The notes beneath the pieces are model-generated. The model was given only the letters and a program-made list of their open reading frames with translations. It was not told the origin of the DNA and did not search any database. Positions 9,289 to 63,762 of a DNA stretch of 64,000 nucleotides are shown here, one piece after another. Source of the DNA: an uncultured virus (IMG/VR IMGVR_UViG_3300047476_001538). Its lineage: Duplodnaviria; Heunggongvirae; Uroviricota; Caudoviricetes. Numbering within the stretch: position 1 is the first letter of the stretch; each line of letters begins with the position of its first letter. The DNA lies in the IMG/VR virus record IMGVR_UViG_3300047476_001538, positions 1 through 64,000 of that record; one strand, given 5' to 3'. A program made the position numbers and the translations under genes.

Positions 9289-9569
9289 CTTTTTTGTAGA
9301 GTGTAGTAAAATAGTCTTGTGGTTAGAAAAACGTGGAGACAAAGATGAATGATTTTAGTTTTGTTATTTTCGTCGTAAATATAGTTTTAGCGATTTTGTT
9401 GGGTATAGTGGTTTCTATTGGAATGGTTTCATCTCCTCTCATGGAGTACCATAATGCAATTAAAGAATGCGAATCAACGCTTCCAAGAAATCAACATTGC
9501 GAAATTACGGCAACCCCGAAAGAAAAACCTTGACTTTTCTGTAAATTGTAGTAAAATAGTCTTGTGGTT
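9211..9569 (+). repeat. ~114-bp direct repeat (9211-9324 and 9456-9569) containing a gene 3' end plus early promoter copies 4 and 5
   Basis: Near-identical gaatgcgaatcaacgcttccaagaaatc...ccttgactttt...tagtaaaatagtcttgtggtt. Confidence 0.9.
9345..9533 (+). CDS. Small membrane protein
   Basis: GGAG RBS in a leader nearly identical to that at 3235-3254; TM helix; duplicated C-terminus. Confidence 0.75.
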   Translation: MNDFSFVIFVVNIVLAILLGIVVSIGMVSSPLMEYHNAIKECESTLPRNQHCEITATPKEKP

Positions 9570-9594
9570 GGAACTTTATGGGAGATTTATTGCT

Positions 9595-10485
9595 ATGATG
9601 ATTGAAGAACTACGGGATTATGTTTTATCTAATCCTAACCTAGTAAAGATGAAGCAATCTGCTACTTATCCAGATTTGTATGTGGTTAAGTATGCCAAGA
9701 AGTGTTTCTATGACGGTATCTGGAACGAATACTTAGAAAAGTGCCGTGGGTTGGTCGTAGATAAAGAATTTAATATCGTAGTTCATCCGTTTGATAAAAT
9801 TTACAATTACGGAATTGAACAACAATGTCCTAAGTTTTCTTTAGATGAAACTGTAACTGCTTTTCGTAAGATCAATGGATTTATGGTTTCAATGACTTGG
9901 CATAATGATCGTTTATTGATTTCTACGACTGGTAGTCTTGATAGCCCTTATGTCAAGATGGTTGAAGATATGATTAAGGATGATCGGCATAGGTTTGAGC
10001 ATATTTGTAAATCGTATGATGAAAATACCTTTTTATTTGAATGTTGTCATCCAGATGATCCTCACATCATACCAGAAGAACTTGGATTATATTTGTTGGG
10101 ATGGAGAGAAAAGAATTTAGAATCAAAGTTACGATTTGATCCTGATTTACTATATTCCTATGGTTTGGAATTGAGAACCAATTGGGTTGATGATTATTTC
10201 ACAACTGTATCCGATTTGATAAAATTATCAAAAAATGTAAAGCACGAAGGTTTCATTTTTTATACGGAAGATGGTAGAGCAGCAAAGATCAAGTCTCCAT
10301 ATTATTTGGTGAAGAAGTTTTTGGCACGTTGTAAGAATACCAACAAGATTCTAGCAAAAGATGCCAAGCAACGGTATCCAGAAGAATTTTATGGAATAAT
10401 TGATGCTGTTCGTGCTGACATTGATAATTTTACTTTACTTTCTGAACAGGAACGACTCTGTTATATTAGGAGATTATTATCTTAG
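9595..10485 (+). CDS. RNA ligase, T4 Rnl1-like
   Basis: CRGLV, PFDKIYN, adenylation motif KINGFM, FLFE, EGF, KIKSPYY. Confidence 0.85.
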   Translation: MMIEELRDYVLSNPNLVKMKQSATYPDLYVVKYAKKCFYDGIWNEYLEKCRGLVVDKEFNIVVHPFDKIYNYGIEQQCPKFSLDETVTAFRKINGFMVSMTWHNDRLLISTTGSLDSPYVKMVEDMIKDDRHRFEHICKSYDENTFLFECCHPDDPHIIPEELGLYLLGWREKNLESKLRFDPDLLYSYGLELRTNWVDDYFTTVSDLIKLSKNVKHEGFIFYTEDGRAAKIKSPYYLVKKFLARCKNTNKILAKDAKQRYPEEFYGIIDAVRADIDNFTLLSEQERLCYIRRLLS

Positions 10486-11446
10486 GTTTCCTTTCTTTCC
10501 CTTCTTTTGATGAAATATGAACCCACTCCCAAGTATGTTTCTCTCCTACTTGGGAGAAATATTCTTCGGAGGAAATTCTTTTTTTGATTCCATCTTTGTT
10601 AATACAAACGCAAGTTTTTTCTGATCCAGAAATCAATTTTGTTTCTGGTTTAAATAAAGAAATACGTTTTCTTCCTTCTAAGGAATTCATACTAACCCAT
10701 TCCCTTTCTGACATTTTTTCGTTTTGCGAATAATAAACATCTTTGGGAACTCTTTTATATTCACCGTTTTTATCATAACAAGGTATAGTTTCTTTATTTT
10801 TTTGAAATGGGTTTGTTCCCTCTTTGCTTCTATCGGAAGCAACTGAAGTTCCGTCCGATCTTCTTAATAAGTTGTGTGTTCCTTCCTTTACACGTTTTAT
10901 GCTATATTCTTTACTAATTGATGAACCGTCTGGTTGTTTTAAAAAATTATGAGTTCCGTTTTTTACATTATCAGTTTGTATACTTGTTCCGTCTGGTCTT
11001 TTTAAAAAGTGATGTGTTCCTTCTTTTACGCGCTTCATTGCAGAGTCCAGACCAACAGATGTTCCATCATCGCGTTTATTAAATATACAATATTTTTTAG
11101 ATTCTTCTTTTAATAATTTATACTCTTTTGAACTGAGTTTAAAACCTTCTTTATTAGATATTAATGTCATAGATAAAGTCATTGATCTATTTTTGTACGC
11201 TTTCCATAATAATAAATGGGCGATAAAATGTTCTCTTGGAGTTAATTCGATACAATTCCATTTGTTTTTGTTTAAATTTTTGTATTGAGGGAACATATCT
11301 TTTGCCTTCGGTAAGATATGATGTTTTTCTACAATATTATTAGTTGATCTATTTAACTTAGAAATGATGAATTTCTTGTATCTATTGAGGTAATGTGAAT
11401 TGTTTTTTATAGAATCTAATTGATCTAAATGTATATAAATATCCAT
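10466..11446 (-). CDS. Free-standing HNH homing endonuclease
   Basis: EKHHILPK...N...LTPREHFIAHLLLWK HNH core; KEGTHxFL...DGTS repeats; TATAAATA late promoter at 11541-11548 (minus). Confidence 0.85.
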   Translation of the reverse strand: MDIYIHLDQLDSIKNNSHYLNRYKKFIISKLNRSTNNIVEKHHILPKAKDMFPQYKNLNKNKWNCIELTPREHFIAHLLLWKAYKNRSMTLSMTLISNKEGFKLSSKEYKLLKEESKKYCIFNKRDDGTSVGLDSAMKRVKEGTHHFLKRPDGTSIQTDNVKNGTHNFLKQPDGSSISKEYSIKRVKEGTHNLLRRSDGTSVASDRSKEGTNPFQKNKETIPCYDKNGEYKRVPKDVYYSQNEKMSEREWVSMNSLEGRKRISLFKPETKLISGSEKTCVCINKDGIKKRISSEEYFSQVGEKHTWEWVHISSKEGKERKPKIIIS

Positions 11447-11502
11447 ACTGGCATCCTCCTACGATGTTAGAGTCCTTGGGTTTGTCCAGAACCGCGAAGG
11501 AC
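11447..11502 (-). ncRNA. Conserved structured 5' leader of HNH endonuclease, copy 1
   Basis: GTCCTT-CGC-GGTT-loop-AACC-C-AAGGAC, TCTAAC, CATC-GTAGGAG-GATG, CAGT-ATG; same layout at 15990-16044. Confidence 0.6.
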
Positions 11503-11567
11503 ATTTTTTTGCTTGACTTTTTACCCGGATGGGTATATACTATTTATATAAATTGAAAGAGGATGTA

Positions 11568-11978
11568 ATGTCTAAACTAATTCTAATCAGGGGTTTGCCA
11601 GGGTCGGGAAAATCAACTCTGGCAAAATCTATGCGTATAGATGAAAATTATGTTCATCTTGAAGCAGATATGTATTTCATGAAGAATGGAGAATATGTCT
11701 TCAATCAGAATAAATTGCATTCTGCTCATGAATGGTGTCAAAATAAAACCGATCTTCACCTTAGTAATCATATAAATGTCATAGTTTCTAATACTTTTAC
11801 AACTTTAAATGAACTAAGACCTTACTTTGAAATTGCCAAGATGTATGATATAATTCCTACTGTAATTTATTGTCAAAATCAATTTGAATCTATTCATAAT
11901 GTTCCCGAAGAAACCATTGAAAAGATGAAAAAAAGATTTGTATATGACCTAACCTCTTTATTTGAAGAATTTCGATGA
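11568..11978 (+). CDS. P-loop kinase (AAA_33 / polynucleotide-kinase-like)
   Basis: Walker A RGLPGSGKST, EADMYF, VSNTFT, HNVP. Confidence 0.85.
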   Translation: MSKLILIRGLPGSGKSTLAKSMRIDENYVHLEADMYFMKNGEYVFNQNKLHSAHEWCQNKTDLHLSNHINVIVSNTFTTLNELRPYFEIAKMYDIIPTVIYCQNQFESIHNVPEETIEKMKKRFVYDLTSLFEEFR

Positions 11979-12529
11979 CTACATACGTGACATCAGATTG
12001 TCATTTCGGACATAAGAACATCATTAAGTTTGAACCTGTATCAAGACCATTTTCTTCAATAGAAGAAATGGACGAGGTTCTTATTGAACGATGGAACTCC
12101 AAAGTAAAAGAAAATGACGAAATCTATATTCTAGGAGATTTTTCTTTTCATAAAGTCAACAAGACTGTAGAAATCCTTGGAAGACTATCTGGTAAGAAAT
12201 ATCTGATTGTTGGTAATCATGACAATCATCTAATTAACCACGATTCTTTTAAGGAAATGTTTGTTGGTTATTATGATTTGTTAGATAACAAAATTGCTGG
12301 TAAGCATTATGCTATGTGCCATTATCCGTTATTGAGTTGGAATCGCAGTCATTATGGGTCAGTGAATCTATTTGGACACCTCCATTCAAGTTGGAAGGGT
12401 AATAGACAACAGTTGAACGTCGGAATGGATTGCCATAACCTGTATCCTATTGCTTTTGAAGAAATTGATAGTTTGTTGGCGGCATTGCCAGAAAGAAGTT
12501 CAGAACTACCCGCGGAGGAAAGATTGTGA
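11975..12529 (+). CDS. Calcineurin-like metallophosphoesterase
   Basis: SDCHFGH, LGDF, GNHD, CHYP, GHLH. Confidence 0.9.
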   Translation: MTTYVTSDCHFGHKNIIKFEPVSRPFSSIEEMDEVLIERWNSKVKENDEIYILGDFSFHKVNKTVEILGRLSGKKYLIVGNHDNHLINHDSFKEMFVGYYDLLDNKIAGKHYAMCHYPLLSWNRSHYGSVNLFGHLHSSWKGNRQQLNVGMDCHNLYPIAFEEIDSLLAALPERSSELPAEERL

Positions 12530-12909
12530 GTAAAATTATTGAAAAACTATTATCGCCTATGGCAAAAGAAGTCTGGATTCTGTTGGAAAATCCAGACGAT
12601 TGGATTCTTGATTATGAGAACAAACCTCCATGCGCCATAGCACATAAAGATACTCACATTGGTCTTTGGGTTGCTAATGGAGTTTGGTTCTTAGATGGAT
12701 ATGGTAAGGAATTTTATGAATATGACGAAAGGGGATGGGCCACCGAAATATTATTTTCCTCAAAAGCGCCAAAGATTGGATGTTTTGATAGACATATTCT
12801 ATGGCGAAGAGTTACAAAAGTGCTAAAACATTTATCTCCGAATAAACAAACTCATTTATTAAATGAATTGAGAGGTTATAATGAACGAAATAATCGAACA
12901 AATCAATGA
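12526..12909 (+). CDS. Hypothetical protein
   Basis: GGAGG RBS, GTGA overlap. Confidence 0.7.
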   Translation: MSKIIEKLLSPMAKEVWILLENPDDWILDYENKPPCAIAHKDTHIGLWVANGVWFLDGYGKEFYEYDERGWATEILFSSKAPKIGCFDRHILWRRVTKVLKHLSPNKQTHLLNELRGYNERNNRTNQ

Positions 12910-13270
12910 AATTGATAATGATGGCGGATATGATGGTTACGAAGTTGCAACGAATAAGCAAAAGATATTGCTTGTTATTGCTAATTTTAGCAAGTGTTGT
13001 GAACAATGGGGTTACTTTTGGTGCAATGATAATACGGAAGAATTCGTTGGTTCTGTATTATCTGATGTTAAAGTAGTTGACACTGCTTTAAACGAACAAA
13101 CGTATAAGGATAATAGTGAAGGTGGAGTGTATGAAGGTTGTGTAATGTTTGTTAATTTAGAAACTTCAAAGGGAACATTACAATTCGTTGCTTATAATGA
13201 TCATAATGGATATTATGGACATACGGCAAAGGTAATAGCAGAAAATTTTAATTATGAGGCTTATTTATGA
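12881..13270 (+). CDS. Hypothetical phage protein
   Basis: GAGG RBS; CCE and YNxHNGYYGH motifs. Confidence 0.8.
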   Translation: MNEIIEQINEIDNDGGYDGYEVATNKQKILLVIANFSKCCEQWGYFWCNDNTEEFVGSVLSDVKVVDTALNEQTYKDNSEGGVYEGCVMFVNLETSKGTLQFVAYNDHNGYYGHTAKVIAENFNYEAYL

Positions 13271-13482
13271 ATCCAAATCCAAACTGTGATAAAGAGTGTA
13301 GATTTAGTGTAGGTTATAGTTGTAGAACTGATGTGTATTATCCTCCGGTTTATGATAAACACGGAAATAACATAAATCCGGATAGAAATATTTCTACTTA
13401 TACCATGTCCTGTTCTACTTGCGGAAAATCTTGGAATTGTTCAACGCAGTTAGGCGAAACCACTTTTACAGAAATGAAATGA
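13267..13482 (+). CDS. Small Cys-rich (zinc-ribbon-like) protein
   Basis: CxxxC...CxxC. Confidence 0.7.
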   Translation: MNPNPNCDKECRFSVGYSCRTDVYYPPVYDKHGNNINPDRNISTYTMSCSTCGKSWNCSTQLGETTFTEMK

Positions 13483-13640
13483 AAGAAATAACATATTTAA
13501 TTTATATTATATTCTGGATAATCTTAGTCATTATTTTTATCATTAGCAGCATATTCTCCTCATCGATGGGCATTGAAGGAGCAAAACCTACATACTCAGA
13601 GAAGAAAACTCTTTGTAAAGAAGATGATGTTTCTGCTTGA
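13479..13640 (+). CDS. Small membrane protein
   Basis: ATGA overlap; strongly hydrophobic helix. Confidence 0.55.
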   Translation: MKEITYLIYIIFWIILVIIFIISSIFSSSMGIEGAKPTYSEKKTLCKEDDVSA

Positions 13641-13696
13641 CTTTTCCTATAAGTTCAAGTACAATATATTTTTGATTGATGACCTAAGGTGAAATT

Positions 13697-14716
13697 ATGA
13701 GACAGATGGCAACTATTAGAAGGATCGAAGAGATTCGTCCTATTCCAGACGCAGATAAGATTTGTTCTTATCGTGTGGGAGGTTGGTGGGTAGTAGATTC
13801 TATCGGAAAGTATTCTGTAGATGATCTTGTAGTTTATTGCGAGATTGATAGTTTTATTCCGCATGAGATTGCTCCTTTTCTTTCTAAGGGAAAAGAACCT
13901 AGAGAATATGAAGGCGTTAAAGGCGAAAGATTAAGAACTGTAAAATTGAAGGGGCAAATTTCACAGGGACTTCTACTTCCATTAGAACCTACTTGTTCTA
14001 TGATTGAATCTGAGTTACTTGAAAGTCTGGATGTTTCTAATCATTTAAATATTCAGAAATATGAGCCTCCAATTCCCGCCCAATTAGCAGGATTGATTAA
14101 GGGTAATTTCCCTTCAAGAATTCCTAAAACCGACCAGGAACGAATTCAGAATCTTTCAAAAGAATTTATTCAATGGAAAGAACAAGGATTAACTTTTGAG
14201 ATTACCGAAAAGTGTGATGGGTCTTCAATGACTTGTTATGTCATTGATGATGTATTTGGGGTATGTTCAAGGAATCTCGATCTTAAATTTGATGAAAATA
14301 ATACTTTTTGGAAAGTAGCAATTGCTAATAATTTTGAAGAGAAACTAAAATCCTTCGGTAAAAATATTGCTATTCAAGGGGAACTTATCGGAATGGGTGT
14401 AAATGGTAATATTTACAAAATGAACAATCATAAATTTGTTTTGTTTGATATTTACGATATTGACGAAGGAAGATATTTTAATTCCGAAGAAAGAAATGAG
14501 TTTGCTGCTGATTTTGGCATTGAACACGTTCCCGTAATTCAGTTTAATTCCTTGGTAGAGTTTAATGATATTCAATGTGTGTTGACTTTTGCAGAAGGAA
14601 AGAGTATAATCAATCCTGTTGTAGAAAGAGAAGGTTTGGTATTTAAGTGTGTGGAAAAACCTGATATTTCCTTTAAATCTATATCAAATCGTTTCTTGAT
14701 TAAGAATGGAGATTAA
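13697..14716 (+). CDS. RNA ligase, DRB0094/Rnl5 family
   Basis: N-terminal OB-like domain (IRPIPDAD, GQISQGL), KTDQERIQN, EKCDGSS, QGELIG, EGLVFK, SFKSISN. Confidence 0.9.
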   Translation: MRQMATIRRIEEIRPIPDADKICSYRVGGWWVVDSIGKYSVDDLVVYCEIDSFIPHEIAPFLSKGKEPREYEGVKGERLRTVKLKGQISQGLLLPLEPTCSMIESELLESLDVSNHLNIQKYEPPIPAQLAGLIKGNFPSRIPKTDQERIQNLSKEFIQWKEQGLTFEITEKCDGSSMTCYVIDDVFGVCSRNLDLKFDENNTFWKVAIANNFEEKLKSFGKNIAIQGELIGMGVNGNIYKMNNHKFVLFDIYDIDEGRYFNSEERNEFAADFGIEHVPVIQFNSLVEFNDIQCVLTFAEGKSIINPVVEREGLVFKCVEKPDISFKSISNRFLIKNGD

Positions 14717-14809
14717 ACTGAAGCGTGAACACCACGATTGCATTGTGGCATGCGCTGATGAAGTGATCGCATTTGACCGCAATCAGAAAAAGAAGGAGTT
14801 GGAAGAACC

Positions 14810-15199
14810 ATGGCAGAAGTAACACGTAATAGACTAAGCAACGCGGCCAACCCATTTCAAGGGGACTTCAAGAAAGTCCTTTGTGTTTGTTCGGCGGGAC
14901 TACTCCGCTCACCAACAGCAGCATGGGTATTGTCTCGTGATCCGTGGAACTTCAATACCAGAGCCGTTGGGTGCAATGAGGAATATGCTCTGGTAACATT
15001 GGACGCTGTTCATTTGGCATGGGCCGATGAGGCGGTAGTATTTGACTACGCTCAGAAAAAGTTAGTAGAGAATCTGCTTAACAAGTATGAATGGAAAAGG
15101 CCAGTACATAATCTGAATGTACCAGATGAGTTTAACTATCGTGAGGAAGCGTTGGTGAATCACTTAACAGAAAAATTCACTGAACTTTATCCAACATAG
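14810..15199 (+). CDS. Low-molecular-weight protein tyrosine phosphatase-like
   Basis: VCSAGLLRSPTA (CX5R) P-loop; VPD acid loop. Confidence 0.85.
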   Translation: MAEVTRNRLSNAANPFQGDFKKVLCVCSAGLLRSPTAAWVLSRDPWNFNTRAVGCNEEYALVTLDAVHLAWADEAVVFDYAQKKLVENLLNKYEWKRPVHNLNVPDEFNYREEALVNHLTEKFTELYPT

Positions 15200-15222
15200 C
15201 GATATCAACATAATGAACTACC

Positions 15223-15246
15223 AGAGGGACCATGATGTCCCTCTTT
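15223..15246. terminator. Hairpin terminator between convergent genes
   Basis: AGAGGGAC-catgat-GTCCCTCT. Confidence 0.65.
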
Positions 15247-15272
15247 GCGTATGCATCGGTCGCAAAAACTGA

Positions 15273-15989
15273 TCATTTGCTGGAGTATCTGTTGCCCTTT
15301 GCTATGTTCTCATCGGCCCACAGTGGCTGAAAGTTGGTGTAGTGGTTAAGTGCAATGATCTCTTCTTCTGTTTTACCCCATGACACAGGAGTGATGTGAT
15401 CCAGGTGCCACTCGCTCCTGTTCTCCCATGACATCCCCGCGACAAATTGAGACTCAATGTGTATCTTGAATTCTTCAAGCGAGCATCCCAGAATCTCATG
15501 AGTGCGTGAGTTTTTAGAGAAATTGTTCCCACGAAAGGCCTGGCCGACGAGGCACCTGACCCTTTGCGTCAGAGCATACAACGGATCGCTTACTCGTTTT
15601 TGTCGATAATATTCTTCATTCCGCTTGTCAATCCGCTCTTTGTTGGACAGATAGTATTGTCTGTGGCGTTGTTTTATGCGTTCTTTATTGGTTACGTCGT
15701 ATTCTCTTCTGCGCTCCTTGAGGCGATCTTTGTTGAGTTGGTTGTACTCCTTGTTGTACTCTTTTCTACGCTCTTTGTTGAGTTGGTTGTACTCTTGGAT
15801 ACGCTCTTTGTTGAGTTGGTAATACTCCTTGGCTTGCTCTTTCCTGTGGTCTTTGTTGGCTTGTCTATAAGCCTTGTCGCACGATCTGCACTTGTTTTGC
15901 AATCCGTCCTTGTTTGCCTTGCATGCGCTGAAGTCAGTAGTAGGTTTTGTTATTTTGCAGACACTGCAAATCTTGGTGTAAATAGTCAT
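15273..15989 (-). CDS. HNH (endonuclease VII-like) homing endonuclease with N-terminal zinc finger
   Basis: CxxC...CxxC, charged helical repeats, WHLDHITPVS...NHYTNFQPLWADENIAKGN; visibly more GC-rich than flanks. Confidence 0.85.
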   Translation of the reverse strand: MTIYTKICSVCKITKPTTDFSACKANKDGLQNKCRSCDKAYRQANKDHRKEQAKEYYQLNKERIQEYNQLNKERRKEYNKEYNQLNKDRLKERRREYDVTNKERIKQRHRQYYLSNKERIDKRNEEYYRQKRVSDPLYALTQRVRCLVGQAFRGNNFSKNSRTHEILGCSLEEFKIHIESQFVAGMSWENRSEWHLDHITPVSWGKTEEEIIALNHYTNFQPLWADENIAKGNRYSSK

Positions 15990-16044
15990 GCTGATTGCTC
16001 CCATAAGCGTTAGAGTGAGCAGGAATCCCCATTCCGTGGCTCGC
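15990..16044 (-). ncRNA. Conserved structured 5' leader of HNH endonuclease, copy 2
   Basis: GCGAGC-CAC-GGAAT-GGGG-ATTCC-T-GCTCAC, TCTAAC, GCTT-ATGG-GAGC, CAGC-ATG; ATAAATA just upstream. Confidence 0.6.
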
Positions 16045-16047
16045 ACT

Positions 16048-16098
16048 TATTTATCTTTCTTGTGTATCTGATACAAGGATTTCCTTCGTTGATAAATA
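16048..16098. promoter_or_regulatory. Divergent T4-like late promoters
   Basis: ATAAATA on minus (16048-16054) and plus (16092-16098). Confidence 0.7.
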
Positions 16099-16125
16099 GC
16101 TTATTACCTACGGTTGTCAATCCAT

Positions 16126-19100
16126 ATGAATATACAAGAATTGTCTACGTTTAGCCTTCGTGACTCATTGAAGTTTCACGACGAACTCAATCCTGCTCTA
16201 TGGGACGAACACGAGCAGTTGAAGCCCGAAGTCAGAGAAAAGCTGCTTCAGATTGCAGAGGATTTTCAGGAATACCTTGGAGTCGACAATCTGGATCTTA
16301 AGGATATTACGTTGTCTGGCTCAAATGCCGCCTTCAGCTATAACAAGCACAGTGACATTGATTTACATTTGGTGGTGGATATGCCAGACGATGAGGTATA
16401 TCGTGAGTTATTTGATGCCAAAAAGTATGCCTATAACGATCAACATGATGTAAAAATAAAAGGATCGCCCGTTGAATTGTATGTTCAAGACGCCAACGAA
16501 GAGCATTATTCTCAGGGTATCTATTCTGTGATGAATGACGAATGGATTGATGTTCCAAAAAAACGCTCATTGGACGTTGATGATAGCAGCGTAAAAAACA
16601 AGTTTGAGGACGTTAAACGTCACATAACTGATGCCATCAATTCAGATGACTTTGATACGCTCTCTGGTGTTCACAAGCGTATCAAAGCAATGCGCCAATG
16701 TGGATTGGAAAAGAATGGTGAGTTTAGTATTGAAAATCTGACGTTCAAGATGCTCAGAAACGAGGGATGGATTGAGAAATTGCTCAATGCCAGAAACAAA
16801 GCTAAAGACAAAATGCTCAGTCTTGCTGAAAAGAACAAGAAGAAGCAAAAAAGAATATATGGGTTTAGCACACCAGAATTACTACAATCTGACGTAACCA
16901 ATACTTGGGACGGTGTGTCTGATAGCACTCAAGATTTTTTGAATGAAGACGTAACCAATACTTGGGACGGTGTATCGGATAGTACTCAACAATTTTTGAA
17001 TGAGAAAGATTCTGAATCTCATAAAGAGGTAATCAAGGACTTCATTTTGTTTTGTAAGAAATACCTAAAGATAGCCAAGTTACCGAAAGTAACACTAAAG
17101 AAGGATGCTAAGTGGTCATCTGAACACAAGACGTTTGGTTACTACAATCCAAATGACAATAGCCTGACAATCAATCTGGCTGGCAGAAACATTGTTGATT
17201 CGTTAAGAACCATTGGTCACGAATTAGTGCATTGTAAGCAATTTGAATCAGTAGATATGCCAACCAATTCTGGCGAAACCGGCAGTGCAGCAGAAAATCA
17301 TGCTAACAGTGTTGCTGGCATACTAATGAGAGAATACGGACAACTCCATCCAGAATTATTTCAAATGCCAGTATTAGCAGAAGCATCAGGGTACATTCCA
17401 ACGGCGGCGCAAGCACATGATCCGAGATTTGAAATGGCATTGAGTTGTGATGTTCATCCTGGTACATTGGGCAGAGTGGCTAACGCATTTGATTTGAATA
17501 CTGATTCACAAGGTAAACCACAGATTGCTAATCCTAATGGCCGAGTAGTCAGAGAAAACTGTATTGAAGAGCAAACATTGTTTGAATCGTGGCAAGATTT
17601 CAAGAGTCAAGAAGAATTGATCGAAATCTTCGATAAAGAGGTTGTCTATGATTCCGTCAAGGACATGATTGAAAAATTTCACAATCGTAACAAAGAGTAT
17701 GTTTATTCGCCATTCACTGATGTGGTTCAATCTCCGGCAATGAAGAGTAATGATTTATTTGCAGTACGTGGCAGAAATAAAAAAGACAAATCAATGGAGT
17801 ATCATTTGGTCAGCACTCGCCATGAAAACGGCAAGATAGGTGATAGTTCACAATGGAATAATGAGGCCCTAAAAGATGCTATGAAGTTCGTTATTGAGGA
17901 CGCAACCAACTTTGTCAATAAAGGCTCTCGTATTAAATTAATGACTGATGATGCTGCGTTGTATGATCAGTATCTTAGAATTGCTAATCTGATGACACAA
18001 CGCATCAATAGAGAAAGGCAACATGGCGGAGAATTTCAAGTAATAGAGGCTGGAAAGACTAATTCAATCGATGGTCAATATTTAGATACTATTTTGATCA
18101 GAGGAACACCAACGAAAAAAATGGAGTCGCTTCGGAATGACCAAACCAAAACCAGCTACATCCCCAACGATATCAATAAGCTAACCTTTGAATCGTTTGA
18201 TCACTATCGCCGTTGGTGTCAATCTCCAAAAACCAATAGCAACAGAAATCCAATGTATCATCCTAATAGATACCAAGGTATTTTTATAGACAGTAAAGAT
18301 TTGCGTGAGACAAACGATATATTCACGAAAAGAAAGCAACAAGGAAAGGAATTTTCAAATGAATTCCTATCACTTGATGATCGTGAAAATGTTGCTTTAA
18401 AAGTAGGTAATAAGATTTCTGTATTATCGTGTATCGTTGCACCCACTGATAAAATTAGCAGAATTGAGCTATCCGGTTTCGTTACTCCTAAAGAGATAGC
18501 AAATCTACTGCTATCAACCGATGATAAGATTGATGCCATTGAATTTACCGATGGCACACAATATCCTGAAAAAGCACAAGAAACTATTGTAGATAATATA
18601 AACCTTGTCAATACTGTATTCTTTCCAGACAAACACACAGCAGATTATGCTATGACCGCAACTGAATTACTGTTATGGGGAATGGAAGGAAAAGGGTGGA
18701 AAATTGAGCGATACATGAGTGAATCTGCTGATAATTTGGAAGAATCACTTTGGGAAGAACTTCAGAATCACAAAAGTGGTGATAATGTCAACAACTTCCA
18801 AAAATGGTTTGGCAATAGTAAAGTGGTTGACGACAACGGCAATCCTCTCAGAGTTTATCATGGAACAGCCGGTGATTTCCCGTCTTTTAGTTCAAAATTT
18901 CAGGGTAAAACAACCGGTGCTACTAGCTCCAAATCAGGATTCTTTTTTACATCATCACCAACTACAGCAAAATCTTATGCTGACTATGCAGCATTAAATG
19001 CAAAAGTGCAACAACTATTGGATCAAGCTGATGCTGCTGAAAAGAAAGGTGATTGGGATTTGTATGATGAAAAGATTCAACAGGCCGAAGAACTTGACGC

Positions 19101-22008
19101 CAGTTTTGGTGATCCAAAAAACAGAGCGCAAGGGCAATCTACTATTCCGGTATTCTTATCTATTCAGAACCCAATAATACTTGATGCTCAGGGTGAAAAT
19201 CCATCTGGTATTGGTGGTATTGATCCGTTGATTAAAAAAGCTAAATCAAGAGGACATGATGGCGTGATTATCAAAAATTTTGATGATTCTGCTGGACTTT
19301 TTAATGATGTATCCGATCATTACATTGTATTTAATGCGAATCAGATAAAGTCTGCCATTGGCAACAAAGGCTCTTACAATCCTGATAGCGATGAAATTGT
19401 AAACGAAAATCAGAATAATTTTAAATCATGGTTTTCTGGATCTAAGATAGTTAATCCGGATGGCACACCAAAGATAATGTATCACGGAACACACAAAGAT
19501 TTTTCTTCTTTTGTTAAGACCGCCGGATCAAAAGCAATATTCGTATCAAGTGATCCTAAATTTGCGAAGGATTATGCTATTGGAAGTGGTGGCAATATTC
19601 TTCCTGTGTACATTCGATCAGTAAAGCCATGGGATTATTTGGATGATTCAGATAATCAAGCACTCCAACACTATTTGGGATTATCCGACGAGGATATAAA
19701 ATGGTGGCAGGGATTTGATGAGGGAGAACTTTACATGGCAGCAGTTAGGGGAAAATGGGATGCCATTGAATCAGACGAATTTCAGAAATTTCTCCAATCA
19801 AATGACTATGATGGATTTTATGTTATCGAAAATGACGCTAGAAATTTAGGAGTATTTAATGCAAATCAGATAAAGTCTGCCATTGGCAACAAAGGCTCCT
19901 ACAATCCTGATAGCGATGAAATCGTAGATGAAGCTATCTCCAAAACCGGCGAGTATGGAAAAGTAGTAAAAATAGTCAAGCAATCTATCGTAGGAGCGGT
20001 TCAACAATTCCAGAAAAGATACCCTGAAATCAGAGAAAGTAATATGTCGTTGAAGGAGCATTATTCGGCAATGCAACCATTGCTTGAACGAAGTTTGGGT
20101 GACAATTTCAATATGTACTTCGACACGCCTGTTAGATTTGAAGAACTAAGTCAAGGTCGTGGACAATATAACAATGACGGAACTATCACGCTCAGTAGCG
20201 ATTTTACAAAAACTTTGACTCGGACATTAGTGGATGCATTGTTTGATTGGTCGCCTGAACCAGCCAGCCACGATGAGCGGTTAAACAAATACGTCGATAT
20301 TAGCAAGTTCACCGAATACGAAGAGTTAGCACAAGACCTCTTTCAAACGAGACCTCATGCAATCAATGACCTCGTTGAAACATTTATTCACGAATATGTT
20401 CACGCCGAACAGCACAAAAGAATAGCTCAGAAGAATACTAAAACAGGCAAATTTATGCCCAATCAATACTATTCGTATTTGCAGCGCAATCGGGCTTTAT
20501 TTGCTAAAGCCGTTCAGAACTTAGAAACTGATGAAGATTGGCAAGCGTATCTATCTTCTCCTCAAGAGATAACGGCACACGCGCATGATCTTGCTAATAA
20601 AATAATACAAGGTGCTCTGTTTGGACAACAGATTGATAATATCAGTCCGGAAGAGGCTGATATTTCCATGAAAATACTAAAGTCCACCTTGCAGCAGGCG
20701 GCTAACTACAATGTACTACCCAAATACCAACAATATGATATCTTTGACCGCAACAACAAGCAACATAGAAAAATCGTTAATAGATTCTTGAAGACAGTGT
20801 ATCAAGAAGTAGCTGCCGCTATTCAAACGCTACAAAATAAAGTTCAATCTGGTAATTTATCAGAATCACTTGGTTCACCTTATCCATTGAATCAAGGATT
20901 AAATCTTGATAGTGTTGTATCATATACATGGAAAGATGAAAATAATCTTAAAGGTAGTATCGGATTCATGCGAGGTGGATATGACGAAGATTGGGAAATA
21001 ACATTCAATGTAGGTGGAAAATTTAATATTACCAATAAAGGTGATGCATTCAGAATATTCGCCACGGCTAAGGATGCTGTTAAAAGATTTATGACCACGC
21101 CGCAAGGTAAAGGAGCAGATAGAGTTTACTTCTCTGCCAAAACATCTGAACCAACCAGAGTGAAGCTGTATGATAAGTTAGCTCAAATGATGGTGAAGAA
21201 TGGATTCAAATTGCATCATACTGAAATGGAAGGCAATCAGAAGTATTATTACCTTGATACGCCAAATCAAGGTAAAGAAGTAAAAGAATCACTTGATAAT
21301 ACACTGCTTGAAGTATTAAAGAATCCAGTAGATCACAATTCATTTAGTGATCTATCAGATATGGTCAACTCACAAAATAAAGGAAAAGCGATGAGCGGTC
21401 ATACTAATGTTATGGCGACTCCAGAAATGAGGAAAGAAAATACATACATTATCAGATTCATGGATAATGATCGTAATATTCAATATCATATCTGCACACT
21501 TGGAATGGATGGTGGTCAACGAAAAAAAGCATCAGATGTAGATCCAAAAATAGGATTGGATGCGTTGAATATTATCTTTCATGATGCTAAGTTTTATCTT
21601 GAAAAGAAGATGCCAGTGTTGATCATAGCCCCAGATAATAAACGTAAACACAGTTATCTGAAAATGGCAACATTGTTAAAAAATCAAGTAGACAGTTCAT
21701 TAAACATAGAAGATGTTGGGATGATAACAGGCGTTGATGGAGCAAGAGGACTCGGTTTCAAAATTGTTGAAACTCAGTATAACAAGCTGACTGGAATTGA
21801 TCCATCATTGGCAGAAGCACAAACAGTGGCCAAAATGATGCCAGCGGTCAAGCTGTGGAAGGCACGGGTAAAAATCAAGCAACCAAACTACATCGGATAC
21901 GTAGAAGCTCAAGTGACTGCACCGGATATGCGCACTGCTCGTAATATGCTCAAGGCGCTCTATAATGTTCCGGAGCATGAGGTTGGATCAGTGACGTTGG
22001 TCAAGTGA
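16126..22008 (+). CDS. Large polyvalent protein: Pol-beta nucleotidyltransferase + zincin + 2x ADP-ribosyltransferase-like (ART-PolyVal) + zincin + shared modules
   Basis: LSGSNA...SDIDLH; HELVH; two F.KWF..SK.V...G.P...YHGT...VFNANQIKSAIGN domains; HEYVH; modules shared with 28567, 30265, 47390, 53808. Confidence 0.85.
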   Translation: MNIQELSTFSLRDSLKFHDELNPALWDEHEQLKPEVREKLLQIAEDFQEYLGVDNLDLKDITLSGSNAAFSYNKHSDIDLHLVVDMPDDEVYRELFDAKKYAYNDQHDVKIKGSPVELYVQDANEEHYSQGIYSVMNDEWIDVPKKRSLDVDDSSVKNKFEDVKRHITDAINSDDFDTLSGVHKRIKAMRQCGLEKNGEFSIENLTFKMLRNEGWIEKLLNARNKAKDKMLSLAEKNKKKQKRIYGFSTPELLQSDVTNTWDGVSDSTQDFLNEDVTNTWDGVSDSTQQFLNEKDSESHKEVIKDFILFCKKYLKIAKLPKVTLKKDAKWSSEHKTFGYYNPNDNSLTINLAGRNIVDSLRTIGHELVHCKQFESVDMPTNSGETGSAAENHANSVAGILMREYGQLHPELFQMPVLAEASGYIPTAAQAHDPRFEMALSCDVHPGTLGRVANAFDLNTDSQGKPQIANPNGRVVRENCIEEQTLFESWQDFKSQEELIEIFDKEVVYDSVKDMIEKFHNRNKEYVYSPFTDVVQSPAMKSNDLFAVRGRNKKDKSMEYHLVSTRHENGKIGDSSQWNNEALKDAMKFVIEDATNFVNKGSRIKLMTDDAALYDQYLRIANLMTQRINRERQHGGEFQVIEAGKTNSIDGQYLDTILIRGTPTKKMESLRNDQTKTSYIPNDINKLTFESFDHYRRWCQSPKTNSNRNPMYHPNRYQGIFIDSKDLRETNDIFTKRKQQGKEFSNEFLSLDDRENVALKVGNKISVLSCIVAPTDKISRIELSGFVTPKEIANLLLSTDDKIDAIEFTDGTQYPEKAQETIVDNINLVNTVFFPDKHTADYAMTATELLLWGMEGKGWKIERYMSESADNLEESLWEELQNHKSGDNVNNFQKWFGNSKVVDDNGNPLRVYHGTAGDFPSFSSKFQGKTTGATSSKSGFFFTSSPTTAKSYADYAALNAKVQQLLDQADAAEKKGDWDLYDEKIQQAEELDASFGDPKNRAQGQSTIPVFLSIQNPIILDAQGENPSGIGGIDPLIKKAKSRGHDGVIIKNFDDSAGLFNDVSDHYIVFNANQIKSAIGNKGSYNPDSDEIVNENQNNFKSWFSGSKIVNPDGTPKIMYHGTHKDFSSFVKTAGSKAIFVSSDPKFAKDYAIGSGGNILPVYIRSVKPWDYLDDSDNQALQHYLGLSDEDIKWWQGFDEGELYMAAVRGKWDAIESDEFQKFLQSNDYDGFYVIENDARNLGVFNANQIKSAIGNKGSYNPDSDEIVDEAISKTGEYGKVVKIVKQSIVGAVQQFQKRYPEIRESNMSLKEHYSAMQPLLERSLGDNFNMYFDTPVRFEELSQGRGQYNNDGTITLSSDFTKTLTRTLVDALFDWSPEPASHDERLNKYVDISKFTEYEELAQDLFQTRPHAINDLVETFIHEYVHAEQHKRIAQKNTKTGKFMPNQYYSYLQRNRALFAKAVQNLETDEDWQAYLSSPQEITAHAHDLANKIIQGALFGQQIDNISPEEADISMKILKSTLQQAANYNVLPKYQQYDIFDRNNKQHRKIVNRFLKTVYQEVAAAIQTLQNKVQSGNLSESLGSPYPLNQGLNLDSVVSYTWKDENNLKGSIGFMRGGYDEDWEITFNVGGKFNITNKGDAFRIFATAKDAVKRFMTTPQGKGADRVYFSAKTSEPTRVKLYDKLAQMMVKNGFKLHHTEMEGNQKYYYLDTPNQGKEVKESLDNTLLEVLKNPVDHNSFSDLSDMVNSQNKGKAMSGHTNVMATPEMRKENTYIIRFMDNDRNIQYHICTLGMDGGQRKKASDVDPKIGLDALNIIFHDAKFYLEKKMPVLIIAPDNKRKHSYLKMATLLKNQVDSSLNIEDVGMITGVDGARGLGFKIVETQYNKLTGIDPSLAEAQTVAKMMPAVKLWKARVKIKQPNYIGYVEAQVTAPDMRTARNMLKALYNVPEHEVGSVTLVK
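16891..17004 (+). repeat. 57-bp in-frame tandem duplication
   Basis: DVTNTWDGVSDSTQxFLNE twice. Confidence 0.85.
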
Positions 22009-22985: not shown

Positions 22986-23071
22986 TTTCATACAAACCAA
23001 CGAGCAACATCAATCAGTGACGTTGGTCAAGTGATAATTCAGATAAATACTTCATTACTATATGAATTATT

Positions 23072-24751
23072 ATGTCACACTTCTCCAAAATCCTTGAATC
23101 ACTGATGAACAATGATGAAACAACTGCTTATCAGTTGTTTCATGAATTCGTCGTGGAATCCAGTAGAGCAATCTACGAAGAGAATCAACTTGATGAATAC
23201 TTAACACCGGACGAAGAAGCAGAGGTAGCCAAGTGGAAGAAAAGAACACCCCAAGCGACAAAAGCGACCAACCATTTCTTCGGCAGTGATGAGATAGAAG
23301 ATATCTATCGCCCATTGGTAGATTTAGATGGTAAATCCGAAGTCCATGCTGCTATTGAACAAGATATTGGTATTCCTATTTCAAGTGATGATTATAAGAA
23401 AGGAATGGTAAAGGACAAAGATGGCAAGCAAATCCGTATTGGTAGTGCAATAAGTGACCCAAAACTGCGAACTGCGTTTAAGACCGATCCGCTAAGAAAA
23501 GGGCAATCAACAAAAGCGGCATCAAGAAATGTTAGAATTACTCGTAGTCCCACTGGAGTGGCCGGACAAACATCTCATGGGCAATCATGGGAAGGTCATT
23601 CTTGTAAGAATTTCAACGATGGCTCAAATCGGCGCTATCTCTGTCACGAAGTAGAACACGGCACAGTGGTTGCTTATCTTACCGACAAAGAATCAGGAGA
23701 AGAAATAGCAAGAGGGACATTTCAGCCATATACGAACAAAGAAGGCAACTACCTATACAGATTGGACTCGTACTATGGTGAAAATAATGCTCAGTTCAAG
23801 AAATACTTGAAGCAATTGGAAAGAGAACTATCACAACCGCATTCTGGTAGTCTGATGTATGACATACATCCCGATGTATATAATGATAGTAGAGTTAAAA
23901 AATCTCTTCCTTATGGTGCAACTGCCGAGGATTATAAAAACTCCCTTGAACAAGGAGAATTGGAGTTAAATGAAATACCAGAAGAATTACGAACGCCAGC
24001 GATATGCAAAATCGCTGTTAGTCAAGATGGCACGGCATTGAAATATGTGCCAGAAGAATTGCCAGAATACGCAAAACTATGCAAAATCGCTGTTAGTCAC
24101 GACGGCTGGGCATTGAAATATGTGCCAGAAGAATTACCGGAATACTTAAAGATATGCAAAATCGCTGTTAGTCAAGATGCCTGGGCGCTGCAATATGTGC
24201 CAGAATACCCAAAACAAATGAGAACACCAACATTATGCAAAATCGCTGTTAGTCAAGATGGCATGACGTTGGGAGATGTGCCAGCAGAATTGAGAACACC
24301 AACGTTATGCAAAATCGCCGTTAGCCAAAATTGGCGGGCGTTGTATTATGTGCCGGAAGAATTGCCAGAATATGCAGATATATGCAAAATCGCTGTTAGT
24401 CAAAAAGGGTTTGACTTGAGCCGTTTACCAAAAGATTTGAGAACACCAACGCTATGCAAAATCGCTGTTAGTCAAAATGGACTGGCGTTGCGACTCGTGC
24501 CAGAAGAATTGCCAGAATATGCAGATATATGCAAAATCGCTGTTAGTCAAGATGGCAGGGCGTTGGTACAGGTGCCAGAAGAACTAAAAACACCGGAAAT
24601 ATGCAAAATTGCTGTTAGTCAAAATGGTGTGGCGTCGCAATATGTGCCAGAAGAATTACAAAATGAAGTGCTCAGATTTTTGTACAACAAGAAAAACAAC
24701 AAGGATAATTTTTCTAAAAAACAGTTGACATCATCAACATTTTCTGTATAA
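23072..24751 (+). CDS. DUF4116-like repeat protein with head-core-like N-terminus (paralog of 57257-58906)
   Basis: MSHFSKILESLMNNDETTAYQLFHEFVVESSRAIYEE; ~9 CKIAVSQxGxALxxVPxEL repeats; ATAAATA at 23043. Confidence 0.85.
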   Translation: MSHFSKILESLMNNDETTAYQLFHEFVVESSRAIYEENQLDEYLTPDEEAEVAKWKKRTPQATKATNHFFGSDEIEDIYRPLVDLDGKSEVHAAIEQDIGIPISSDDYKKGMVKDKDGKQIRIGSAISDPKLRTAFKTDPLRKGQSTKAASRNVRITRSPTGVAGQTSHGQSWEGHSCKNFNDGSNRRYLCHEVEHGTVVAYLTDKESGEEIARGTFQPYTNKEGNYLYRLDSYYGENNAQFKKYLKQLERELSQPHSGSLMYDIHPDVYNDSRVKKSLPYGATAEDYKNSLEQGELELNEIPEELRTPAICKIAVSQDGTALKYVPEELPEYAKLCKIAVSHDGWALKYVPEELPEYLKICKIAVSQDAWALQYVPEYPKQMRTPTLCKIAVSQDGMTLGDVPAELRTPTLCKIAVSQNWRALYYVPEELPEYADICKIAVSQKGFDLSRLPKDLRTPTLCKIAVSQNGLALRLVPEELPEYADICKIAVSQDGRALVQVPEELKTPEICKIAVSQNGVASQYVPEELQNEVLRFLYNKKNNKDNFSKKQLTSSTFSV

Positions 24752-49621: not shown

Positions 49622-49701
49622 CTATCAAAAAGTATACTGTCTACTGGCGTATGAGACAACACTGCTCATAATAAAGGTCCAAACAGTATACTTTTTGATA
49701 G
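49622..49701. repeat. Perfect 19-bp inverted repeat enclosing a 42-nt structured loop
   Basis: CTATCAAAAAGTATACTGT / ACAGTATACTTTTTGATAG; inner TATGAG/CTCATA hairpin. Confidence 0.85.
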
Positions 49702-49727
49702 ACGAGAAAGGATTTGAATTAAACAAT

Positions 49728-50050
49728 GGTTGTATATCTTTCAAAGTGAAGGCATTGCGGACGGCGGTTCGATCCCGCCCATTTCCAAAAATTTCTCTTC
49801 AAGATCATTCGACTGAGTGATCTTGTGGGGAATGACATGGTTTCGACGTGGTGAGATAGTGGAGAAGGCAACCCGAGAGATGTCTGACGTAATCAGCATA
49901 AACATTATAGATGCTAAATCTACAAAAACTTCTGGAACTGTTACTGTATCTGGTAAGGGCATGAAATTTTCTGCTCGCACCGCTGTACGTGGAGTTGCGC
50001 TAGCCTAAGAAACTGGCACCAGCGGAGTTGATCACTCTGTTACAAGAACG
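49728..50050 (+). ncRNA. ssrA: Circularly permuted (two-piece) tmRNA
   Basis: T-arm GGCGG-TTCGATC-CCGCC + CATTTCC-A (ends 49787) precedes GGGAATG-ACATGGTTTCGAC (starts 49828); acceptor stem has G3.U70; tag frame 49913-50008. Confidence 0.9.
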
Positions 50051-57206: not shown

Positions 57207-57256
57207 TTAAAAAGTGTTGATAATAAGATAAATAATTCATTACTATATGAATTATT

Positions 57257-58906
57257 ATGTCACACTTTACTAAAATCCTTGAATCACTTATGAACAATGA
57301 TGAAACAACTGCTTATCGGTTGTTTCATGAGTTCGTTGTTGAATCCAGTCGAGCAATCTACGAAGAAGTGAATCTCACAGAAGCCAGTTATGATGGCATG
57401 ATTGCTTCAATGAAAGCTAAGTATCCCGATTTCCAACAAGAGATTGCTGATCAACTCAAGTGGGCAAAAGCTACGCTCAAGAAGGACGAAAAAATCGTTT
57501 GGTACATGAAGAACGTTGGCAATATGCTCGCTGATCAACAGGCCGGCAAGCAAGTACCTGATATAAAAGAAATTCAGAATGATCTTGGCCACTTCTTTGG
57601 CTTCAATATACCGGCGATTGATCAATATCAATTCGGTAAGAAATCATATGATGAAATCATCAATGATTTACAATCAATAGAACAAGATTGGAGTGAAAAG
57701 CAGTCCAAGCGTAATTTGCCACCCATAGAACCACAAGAAGGCGACTATGAACTGATGAAATTCCCTGATGGGAGTGCTTGGTGGTGGGTCGACAGAGCCT
57801 ATTGCGAGAAAGAAGGCAAACACGGCAAGCATTGCGGGAACGTAACTGGAAAAAGCAAACCAAATCAGCGAATATTGAGTCTTAGGAAGAACGGTCAGGT
57901 ATTACTTACATTCATCCTTGAACCTAACGGCAATTTAGGGGAGATGAAGGCATACAATAACCAGAAACCAAGTGAAAAGCTTCATCCTCAGATCATGAGT
58001 TTATTACTAAGCGACAAGGTAAAAGGCATACAAGGTGGTGGTTACTTAGCCGACAACAACTTCTCGGTATTTGATTTATCTGATGAAAACTTACAAGTAA
58101 TTCAGAATAAAAAACCTAATCTTATAAGCGATCAAATTAAAGTAAGTCCTGGTCAAGCACTACAAGCACCGGCTTGGGTAAGGAAAACATATATGAATGA
58201 GATAAGCAAACTATCAACTGGCTTACAATATCTGATTGACCCAAATACCGGTGAATACACCAATGATCCAGCTGCATGGGATAAAGCAATTCAAGCAGAT
58301 TCAAAATTATCATTGAATGTTCCGAGTAACATGATTGATCGCTACAAAGATGTGATATTGAGTGTTTTGAAAAGAACTCCCAAATTTCTCATATCACGAG
58401 CAAGCAGAGATATACGAAGGAATTTTGAAATATTGAAAGAATTTGTGCAATTGAGTTATAAAAATATAGGGTATGTTCAACCGACTACTCTGGGTTATAC
58501 TAAACTATGCAAACGCGCTGTTAGTAATGAGGGCATGGCGTTGGAATATGTGCCAGAAGAATTGCCAGAATACGCAGAAATATGCAAAATAGCTGTTAGT
58601 CAAGATCCTTGGGCGTTGCGATGGGTGCCAGAAGAATTGCCAGAATACGCAGAAATATGCAAAATAGCTGTTAGCCAAAATGGCAGGGCGTTGCATTATG
58701 TGCCGATAGAATTGAGAACACCAACATTATGCAAAATCGCTGTTAGTAATGAGGGCATGGCGTTGGTAGCAGTGCCAGAAAAATTAAGAACACAGGAAAT
58801 ATACAAAGCCGCTGTTAGCCAAAATGGCAGGGCGTTGGAATATGTGCCACCCGAAATCAAAGACGAAGTGAAAAGAGCAGTAGAACAAGAAAAACAACAA
58901 GGATAA
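57257..58906 (+). CDS. DUF4116-like repeat protein with head-core-like N-terminus (paralog of 23072-24751)
   Basis: Same 37-aa N-terminus, different middle domain (EG....HCGN...SLR...EMK...NQKP), 5 C-terminal repeats; ATAAATA at 57228. Confidence 0.85.
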   Translation: MSHFTKILESLMNNDETTAYRLFHEFVVESSRAIYEEVNLTEASYDGMIASMKAKYPDFQQEIADQLKWAKATLKKDEKIVWYMKNVGNMLADQQAGKQVPDIKEIQNDLGHFFGFNIPAIDQYQFGKKSYDEIINDLQSIEQDWSEKQSKRNLPPIEPQEGDYELMKFPDGSAWWWVDRAYCEKEGKHGKHCGNVTGKSKPNQRILSLRKNGQVLLTFILEPNGNLGEMKAYNNQKPSEKLHPQIMSLLLSDKVKGIQGGGYLADNNFSVFDLSDENLQVIQNKKPNLISDQIKVSPGQALQAPAWVRKTYMNEISKLSTGLQYLIDPNTGEYTNDPAAWDKAIQADSKLSLNVPSNMIDRYKDVILSVLKRTPKFLISRASRDIRRNFEILKEFVQLSYKNIGYVQPTTLGYTKLCKRAVSNEGMALEYVPEELPEYAEICKIAVSQDPWALRWVPEELPEYAEICKIAVSQNGRALHYVPIELRTPTLCKIAVSNEGMALVAVPEKLRTQEIYKAAVSQNGRALEYVPPEIKDEVKRAVEQEKQQG

Positions 58907-62610: not shown

Positions 62611-62684
62611 CGGCCTTGACGAGATTCGAACTCGTAACCTTCCCATTAGTCAAGCAGGCGCTCTGTCCATTGAGCTACAAGGCC
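62611..62684 (-). tRNA. Atypical tRNA (Arg-like body, degenerate anticodon arm, nominal GAC)
   Basis: GGCCTTG/CAAGGCC acceptor, GCTC/GAGC D-stem, ACGAG-TTCGAAT-CTCGT T-arm; weak CCTGC/ATGGG stem; no CCA; own TTGACT-N17-TAATAT promoter. Confidence 0.75.
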
Positions 62685-62767
62685 GTGTCTATATTACACG
62701 ATTATCATCAGGCAGTCAAGGTAAATTTTTATGGCAGTCTTCGGCGTAGATAAATAAGATTTATAAT

Positions 62768-62842: not shown

Positions 62843-62847
62843 TTTAA

Positions 62848-63653: not shown

Positions 63654-63666
63654 AATAACAGTTTAT

Positions 63667-63750: not shown

Positions 63751-63762
63751 CATTAAAAATAC

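Follow-up and report, generated by a model that had tools for sequence, protein, structure and literature searches.

A covarying module at the head of homing endonuclease genes of uncultured jumbo phages, and its putative antisense RNA

The homing endonuclease genes I-TevI, I-TevII, I-TevIII, segB and mobE of phages T4 and Aeh1 carry a late promoter inside a hairpin, which hides the ribosome binding site on the long sense transcript and limits expression to late times (PMC2988022). Here, we analyse a comparable arrangement in the IMG/VR record IMGVR_UViG_3300047476_001538, from an uncultured virus of the Caudoviricetes. The record (75.8 kb, 37.7% G+C) is estimated to be 21% complete and is therefore a fragment of a jumbo phage genome; the window, that is the whole stretch of DNA that was analysed, is its first 64 kb. 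Two homing endonuclease genes of the window, both on the minus strand, are directly preceded by the same kind of structured element. Like the T4/Aeh1 genes, they combine a T4-type late promoter with RNA structure next to the endonuclease ribosome binding site. However, the T4/Aeh1 hairpins, as that account presents them, are formed by the sense strand and differ from gene to gene, whereas here one conserved module stands before many unrelated endonuclease genes and its fold fits the opposite strand. What the module encodes seems to be a counter-transcript and not a simple hairpin of the mRNA.

Hairpins before endonuclease genes have also been described at metagenomic 'fractured gene' loci from ocean and lake: Dassa et al. 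(2009) found them in 15 of 16 endonuclease 5' untranslated regions (UTRs), 10 of them including TATAAATA, with two conserved motifs complementary on the stem, and read them as sense translational hairpins (PMC2677866). Those loci are Vsr-like and GIY-YIG genes inside split genes, and the sections of the paper devoted to them contain no covariation or strand test (PMC2677866); going by the text description, on which the comparison is based, their hairpins may be the same module or a sister of it. The PeSL cassettes of T4-type phages are short repeated promoter-plus-terminator units whose last elements are a Shine-Dalgarno sequence and a start codon (PMC2839356; PMC4122927). They resemble the module described here in heading variable genes many times over in a single genome (13, 13 and 8 copies in three jumbo genomes for the present module), and PeSLs have been linked to modular shuffling. 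As characterised in these papers, however, PeSLs have sigma-70 early promoters and a same-strand stem-loop and head ORFans, whereas the present module has two convergent late boxes and a two-hairpin fold and heads endonuclease genes only. It contains no sigma-70-like early promoter: the conserved boxes are ATAAATA and not -35/-10 hexamers, and a TTGACT hexamer beside one of the window copies belongs to the neighbouring gene. A literature search found no paper joining homing endonucleases with a phage antisense RNA, a late promoter and a terminator, related searches leading only to Dassa et al. and to reviews on T4.

The first of the two window genes, gene A (P0001, 10466..11446, minus strand), encodes a homing endonuclease of 326 amino acids (aa) of N-terminal HNH type, which starts M-D-I-Y and matches phrog_655 'homing endonuclease' (E 5.8e-21). 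Gene B (P0002, 15273..15989, minus strand) encodes one of 238 aa with an N-terminal Cys cluster and a C-terminal HNH type domain, which starts M-T-I-Y and matches phrog_1035 (E 1.2e-24); neither protein has a Pfam match at E 0.01. A preliminary description of this DNA had considered the two proteins unrelated and the two elements variants of one structured leader; the lack of relationship and the shared structure are both borne out. The proteins have no significant similarity (best BLASTP E 0.05) and fall in separate PHROG endonuclease families. As the 5' UTR of the gene A mRNA, element A (11447..11502, minus strand) can fold into stems 1 and 2 and a short Shine-Dalgarno hairpin, and element B (15990..16046, minus strand) lies directly before gene B. 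Stem 1 is GTCCTT/AAGGAC in copy A and GCGAGC/GCTCAC, with one C.A mismatch, in copy B; stem 2 is GGTT/AACC and GGAAT/ATTCC, respectively, and the internal loop, CGC/C in one and CAC/T in the other, is of a CRC/Y type. On the 3' side of the stems both copies continue with ACTCTAAC, GGAG and then CAGT-ATG or CAGC-ATG. The stem sequences thus differ while their pairing is kept. An ATAAATA late promoter had been assigned to each element. This is true of gene B, whose box (16048..16054, minus strand) lies 3 nt before the first G of the hairpin, but not of gene A, which has an A-run at the corresponding site and whose closest late-promoter box, TATAAATA (11541..11548, minus strand), is 39 nt upstream of the element. 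In the 64-kb window ACTCTAAC occurs twice, both times in the two elements; at least two matches were found in 26 of 100 shuffles, so that this is weak evidence alone, and the case against chance rests on relatives.

The three closest viral-contig relatives of P0002 (L001, L002 and L004; 40-49% identity) carry the same element with different complementary stems, and more distant relatives are without it; a single-sequence search of the viral contigs gave no relatives of P0001. We then scanned contigs with a pattern in which only the conserved single-stranded positions and two G-C pairs were specified, the promoter, the ATG and the stem-1 pairing being left free. In viral contigs, at least 119 stretches were found, holding 123 matches among those listed; the five free stem-1 pairs were all paired in 112 of these 123 and four of the five in 7 more. 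Metagenome contigs gave at least 118 stretches, reducing to 113 unique matches, of which 66 had all five pairs Watson-Crick and the remainder are largely chance. Among the viral and metagenome matches listed, about 181-190 are genuine copies, and it is from the pattern and model matches listed that the samples of 72-117 copies, ORFs or loci used below were drawn. While a covariance model built from five sequences (R1) recovered only its own training copies, a second (R2), built from 109 distinct copies and run on five whole records, found 13 copies each in a complete genome of 360,683 bp that has terminal repeats and in one of 333 kb, 8 in one of 258 kb and 2 in one of 524 kb; in the source record it found the 2 already known. 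The range for near-complete jumbo genomes of 260-360 kb is 8-13 copies. All these copies had E <= 1e-13, with no match between that value and 0.01. In GenBank phages, neither megablast of 10400-16200 nor blastn of a canonical copy gave a match, and no cultured phage with the module was found there. Scanned on both strands against Rfam 15, the whole window gave only tmRNA and tRNAs at gathering scores, and 11380-16150 gave 11 weak matches at E <= 10, none of them at either element.

The ORFs behind the module nearly all start M-x-I-Y, yet they encode many types of endonuclease with nuclease and DNA-binding domains. The link to HNH enzymes that the preliminary description drew is therefore too narrow: HNH, HNH_3, GIY-YIG, SegE-like and other endonuclease genes are all headed by it. 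Pfam searches on 92 module-associated ORFs gave NUMOD3 27, HNH_3 15, HNH 10, GIY-YIG 9, I-TevI_DNA-bd 3, SegE_GIY-YIG 3 and HNH_5 2, counts that may overlap on one protein, and of ten ORFs chosen for lacking an obvious nuclease motif, six matched PHROG endonuclease families. Although common among endonuclease genes, the module does not stand before all of them. By coordinate matching in two genomes, it lies directly before 12 of 14 HNH_3 genes above cut-off, none of 2 Pfam GIY-YIG genes and 1 of 4 NUMOD3 matches; the genes without an upstream module in these jumbo genomes include the two Pfam GIY-YIG and two HNH_3 genes (G004 68237-68500 (-) and 318194-318328 (-); G006 101688-101948 (+)). Solo modules were sought among the copies lacking an ORF, and all those that could be judged head frameshifted or stop-interrupted endonuclease genes. 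In three loci (L096, L104 and L129) a frameshifted endonuclease gene lies behind an intact module, which outlives its ORF for a while at least. Two other module-bearing ORFs (L077:7881-7979 (-) and L110:4772-4870 (-)) have an in-frame TAG within the first 10 codons and align to intact relatives over more than 170 aa; either these ORFs became pseudogenes recently or they hint that the phages concerned recode TAG.

Read as mRNA, the structure composed of stems 1 and 2 and a Shine-Dalgarno hairpin of 3 bp is paired in 93.1% of cells (one pair in one copy) over 109 distinct copies, and its covariation of 0.474 compares with 0.146 in shuffles, 0 of 500 reaching the observed value, and with at most 0.094 when partners were slid. 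We are practically certain that the family and its covariation are real. To compare the strands, the same 18 pairs were counted in the same 109 copies on the sense and on the antisense alignment (1962 cells): standard pairs make up 99.2% of the antisense cells and 89.1% of the sense cells. The largest difference is in an extended hairpin 1 (98.4% antisense vs 77.2% sense), with smaller ones in the stem-1 helix (100% vs 98.6%) and the stem-2 helix (99.5% vs 98.6%). One hairpin-1 pair is G-U in 108 of 109 antisense copies and pairs in none of the 109 in sense. A second is U-A in 47, U-G in 45 and C-G in 16 antisense copies and is unpaired in 45 sense copies; a third is A-U in 85 and G-U in 23, the same number being unpaired in sense; a fourth covaries in either orientation (C-G 95, U-A 13). 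Over the antisense alignment, 276 cells are changed on both sides, against 52 in shuffles. Stem 1 tells the same story from the sense side: 117 distinct model-aligned rows contain 691 Watson-Crick and 11 A.C cells and not a single G.U, and 14 distinct stem-1 arm pairs contain A.C or C.A and none G.U. Since an A.C in sense is a G-U in antisense, this is the pattern expected from selection on an RNA of the opposite strand.

Folding agrees with the counts. On the opposite strand both window copies and the canonical copy form two clean hairpins followed by a U-rich tail, and hairpin 1 extends to 8 bp, the complement of CAGC-AT pairing with the complement of TCTAAC via two G-U pairs. As the G-U pairs of hairpin 1 exist only in antisense, ACTCTAAC and CAGY are two arms of an antisense-strand helix. 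The minimum free energy is lower in antisense for 77 of the 109 copies (means -16.5 vs -14.1 kcal/mol). The strand on which the fold was selected is, in all likelihood, the antisense one, and because the conserved fold fits the strand opposite the mRNA, an antisense RNA or a terminator is more likely than an mRNA leader fold. Of the mobile cis-regulatory RNA family proposed in the preliminary description, the covarying, mobile, RNA-level module travelling with phage endonuclease genes stands, and the mRNA leader fold finds less support. Its further suggestion of an RNA cofactor that travels with the endonucleases is implausible for several unrelated nuclease folds, and nothing supports it.

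In the alignment of the 109 copies, conservation runs from ATAAATA to TATTTAT, over about 85 bp, with none beyond. The upstream box lies 5 nt before the first G of stem 1 in 67 copies, 3 nt in 25 and 4 nt in 6, so that in 98 of 111 copies a late promoter stands directly upstream of the endonuclease gene, and this spacing argues for late transcription of T4 type that starts at the base of the hairpin. At the other end of the module, TATTTAT, which covers codons 2-4 (NNT ATT TAT), is the exact mirror image of the upstream ATAAATA, and it is constrained as nucleotides and not as codons. In 72 M-x-I-Y ORFs the amino acid of codon 2 varies while its third base is T in all 72; the Ile of codon 3 is ATT in 68, vs 41% of the Ile codons elsewhere in these ORFs, and the Tyr of codon 4 is TAT in 63, vs 70% elsewhere. 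Moreover, in 12 copies the ATG is displaced by 1-2 nt and the CAGY-to-TATTTA spacing is still 5, TATTTA being then read in another frame (M-Y-L or M-I-F). A late-promoter role for ATAAATA finds some support in the gene content and in the distribution of the motif: a gp55-like late sigma factor gene (phrog_234, E about 1e-22) is present in four of five module-bearing records, the fifth being the 21% fragment from which the window comes, and in that source record, of which 90% is coding, half of the ATAAATA sites (16 of 32) fall between genes.

We propose that the approximately 85-bp module, which heads the free-standing homing endonuclease genes of a clade of uncultured jumbo phages, gives rise to a separately transcribed antisense RNA of about 65 nt that restrains the endonuclease, a reading to which we assign a probability of roughly 55%. 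Along the opposite strand, ATAAATA would be followed by a 5-nt spacer and a purine at the base of hairpin 1, then by hairpin 1 itself, a single nucleotide, hairpin 2 and finally the U-rich tail. A predicted start some 6 nt beyond the mirrored box would put the 5' end of the RNA at the base of hairpin 1 (8 bp). The arm and loop of this hairpin would contain the complement of the Shine-Dalgarno sequence GGAG, and hairpin 2 with the U-rich tail would act as an intrinsic terminator. Such a cis-antisense RNA would be complementary to the entire 5' UTR of the endonuclease mRNA, which itself would start opposite the foot of hairpin 2. Pairing with the leader may limit translation of the nuclease or the stability of its mRNA, and transcriptional interference between the two late promoters, which converge from a distance of 75 bp, may contribute. 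The two transcripts with their ends, like the repression, are predictions from sequence.

In copy A, the putative late promoter of the antisense RNA is TATAAATA at 11434..11441 (plus strand), opposite gene A from its codons 2-4, as suggested by the family-wide constraint and by the fixed spacing to the helix. Hairpin 1 (11447..11470) would start at 11447 and folds as an 8-bp helix of 11448-11455 with 11463-11470, including two G-U pairs, with the complement of the Shine-Dalgarno sequence in its loop. Hairpin 2 (11472..11502) is the complement of stem 1 and stem 2, and is directly followed on its 3' side by an A and seven U (11503..11510), the predicted intrinsic terminator tail. In copy B, the corresponding box in codons 2-4 is the variant GTAAATA (15978..15984, plus strand), which serves as the upstream box in some other copies (L082, L086 and L228). 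Hairpin 1 (15990..16013), with a predicted start at G15990, pairs 15991-15999 with 16006-16013 and has one bulged U; in hairpin 2 (16015..16044) the C.A mismatch of the sense strand becomes a U-G pair, and the U-rich tail (16045..16061) lies opposite the sense late promoter and the A-rich spacer that goes with it.

The nearest functional analogues would be the antisense RNAs of type I toxin-antitoxin systems such as SymR/SymE and Sok/hok: a short structured cis-antisense RNA, with a promoter in or beside the start of the toxic gene, covers the ribosome binding region and ends at an intrinsic terminator. The present module shares with them a conserved structure opposite the target mRNA, and its antisense strand carries, at the level of motifs, the constrained mirrored ATAAATA at fixed spacing, the hairpin and the U-rich tail. 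The type I RNAs are bacterial or plasmid-borne and use host promoters, whereas here the promoters would be phage late promoters and the target a homing endonuclease, and the system is known from its sequence alone.

Several observations weigh against this proposal. The promoter and terminator of the antisense RNA are predicted from motifs, and a consensus terminator scan did not flag the antisense hairpin, which we suggest reflects a scan rule that disallows an internal loop. In most copies the U-rich tail falls on the sense promoter and its A-rich spacer, read in complement, and is independent evidence only in promoter-less copies that have a U-run; there are 19 copies with no adjacent sense promoter, and about 9 of these, copy A included, keep the A-run that is a U-run in antisense. 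TATTTA is absent in 19 of 183 copies (about 10%), and the window's own copy B has the weaker GTAAATA. TATTTAT is kept in 32 of 38 loci co-directional with the upstream neighbour and in 35 of 60 divergent ones, a bias which fits occlusion in read-through transcripts at least as well. The copies are related, so that all counts are of non-independent events. Lastly, the sense RNA can still form stem 1, stem 2 and the 3-bp Shine-Dalgarno hairpin, and may have a role.

Such a role could be that of an mRNA leader: the late transcript would start at the first G of stem 1, its 5' hairpin would stabilise the mRNA or bind a phage or endonuclease protein, and the Shine-Dalgarno hairpin would damp translation. 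The placement of the late-promoter box, which ends 3-5 nt before the hairpin in 98 of 111 copies, speaks for this view, stems 1 and 2 are paired in 98.6% of the sense cells, and the CRC/Y loop and first G-C pairs are conserved even in copies that the model found outside the search pattern. We nevertheless consider it unlikely, as the non-Watson-Crick cells of stem 1 are all A.C and never G.U, the reverse of what a sense helix tolerates, and as the invariant TCTAAC and CAGC, which pair together in antisense, are left without a sense role and the constraint on TATTTAT without an explanation.

It is also unlikely that the antisense fold acts solely as a tandem-hairpin terminator or insulator, stopping antisense transcription through the endonuclease gene and protecting the neighbours without a dedicated small RNA. 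The fold does fit the antisense strand and is followed by a U-rich tail, and of the 98 genes with a called upstream neighbour, 60 are antisense to it. The 3' ends of these genes often overlap a convergent gene, so that host transcripts must cross them. Both window endonuclease genes are oriented opposite to their neighbours. In copy A, moreover, the U-run is directly followed by the sigma-70-like promoter of the next plus-strand gene, which encodes an AAA_33 kinase-like protein (11513..11541, plus strand; TTGACT, 17 nt, TATACT; 10 of 12 consensus positions). However, the other 38 of the 98 genes are co-directional with the upstream neighbour, and in these a terminator would serve no host gene. 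With both neighbours considered, 41 loci have the endonuclease gene antisense to the two and 23 have it co-directional; the function of the module is independent of neighbours. Nor would termination by itself account for the conservation of the mirrored ATAAATA and its fixed 5-nt spacing to hairpin 1.

Temporal occlusion in the manner of T4, whose hairpins that occlude the ribosome binding site the preliminary description mentions, is improbable. In this scheme, the upstream box would pair in read-through transcripts with the TATTTAT that follows the AUG and close the initiation region, late transcripts that lack the 5' arm being translated. The two boxes are indeed exact inverted repeats, TATTTAT is retained more often in co-directional loci as noted above, and the mechanism is an established one for I-TevI, segB and mobE (PMC2988022). 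When 102 copies were folded, however, the unpaired probability was 0.46 in long and 0.64 in late transcripts at +4..+13, 0.34 vs 0.38 at the Shine-Dalgarno sequence and 0.40 vs 0.45 at the AUG, so that the ribosome binding site is not clearly hidden in the one and freed in the other. Seven A-U pairs closing a multiloop are weak, the predicted late start at the foot of stem 1 would keep both hairpins in the late transcript, and the antisense-specific helix would be left unexplained. A pure recombination module of the PeSL type, conserved by gene conversion and modular shuffling with no selected RNA structure, can practically be dismissed despite the several copies per genome, the head, M-x-I-Y included, shared by unrelated ORFs and the precedent that the PeSL cassettes offer (PMC2839356), for the 276 cells changed on both sides, vs 52 in shuffles, are not expected from homogenisation alone; recombination may explain the spread of the module and of the M-x-I-Y head among unrelated ORFs.

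The antisense RNA that we favour could also act beyond its own gene. The module is nearly identical across 8-13 genes per genome and across phages, and the RNA of one copy could therefore pair with others. It is tempting to speculate that the antisense RNAs form a family-wide network, in which the RNA from one copy pairs with the leaders of all module-bearing endonuclease mRNAs, including those of a co-infecting phage; we regard this as a doubtful extension. If true, it would amount to a common brake on these endonucleases or to a weapon with which phages compete, and would explain why sequence is conserved beyond structure alone.

The surroundings of the two genes have features of their own. 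Gene A interrupts an RNA-repair style cluster (9418-14716, plus strand) that comprises a T4 Rnl1-like RNA ligase (9418-10485), the AAA_33 kinase-like gene (11529-11978), whose start is more likely the ATG at 11568, with a good Shine-Dalgarno sequence, than 11529, and an Rnl2-like ligase with a PHA02142 OB domain (13697-14716). A search for an endonuclease-free allele beside the RNA ligase gene gave one 36% relative only. Next to gene B, a gene at 16114-22008 (plus strand) encodes a polyvalent protein of 1964 aa with an ART-PolyVal ADP-ribosyltransferase domain (E 3.6e-39), and its ATAAATA box (16092-16098) stands back to back with that of gene B. A second repeated leader is present at 23043-23075 and 57228-57260 (plus strand), where ATAAATA is followed by about 22 nearly identical bases before ORFs of 559 aa and 549 aa. 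The window also contains a permuted tmRNA gene (RF04321, 110 bits, with a beta_tmRNA match too) and four tRNA genes (49700-49979, plus strand, and 62611-63936).

Among the selfish genes of large phages, homing endonucleases are the commonest, and control of their dose is known for only a handful of T4-type genes. Here, one portable control module is common to more than 180 endonuclease genes of unrelated nuclease families, and its covariation is unusually clean. The analysis also illustrates that the asymmetry of wobble pairs can reveal the functional RNA strand of an element that looks symmetric. If the proposed antisense RNA is real, it would be the first case of homing endonucleases controlled by an antisense RNA and a new phage small RNA family for Rfam, encoded by a compact promoter-RNA-terminator unit driven wholly by T4-type late promoters.

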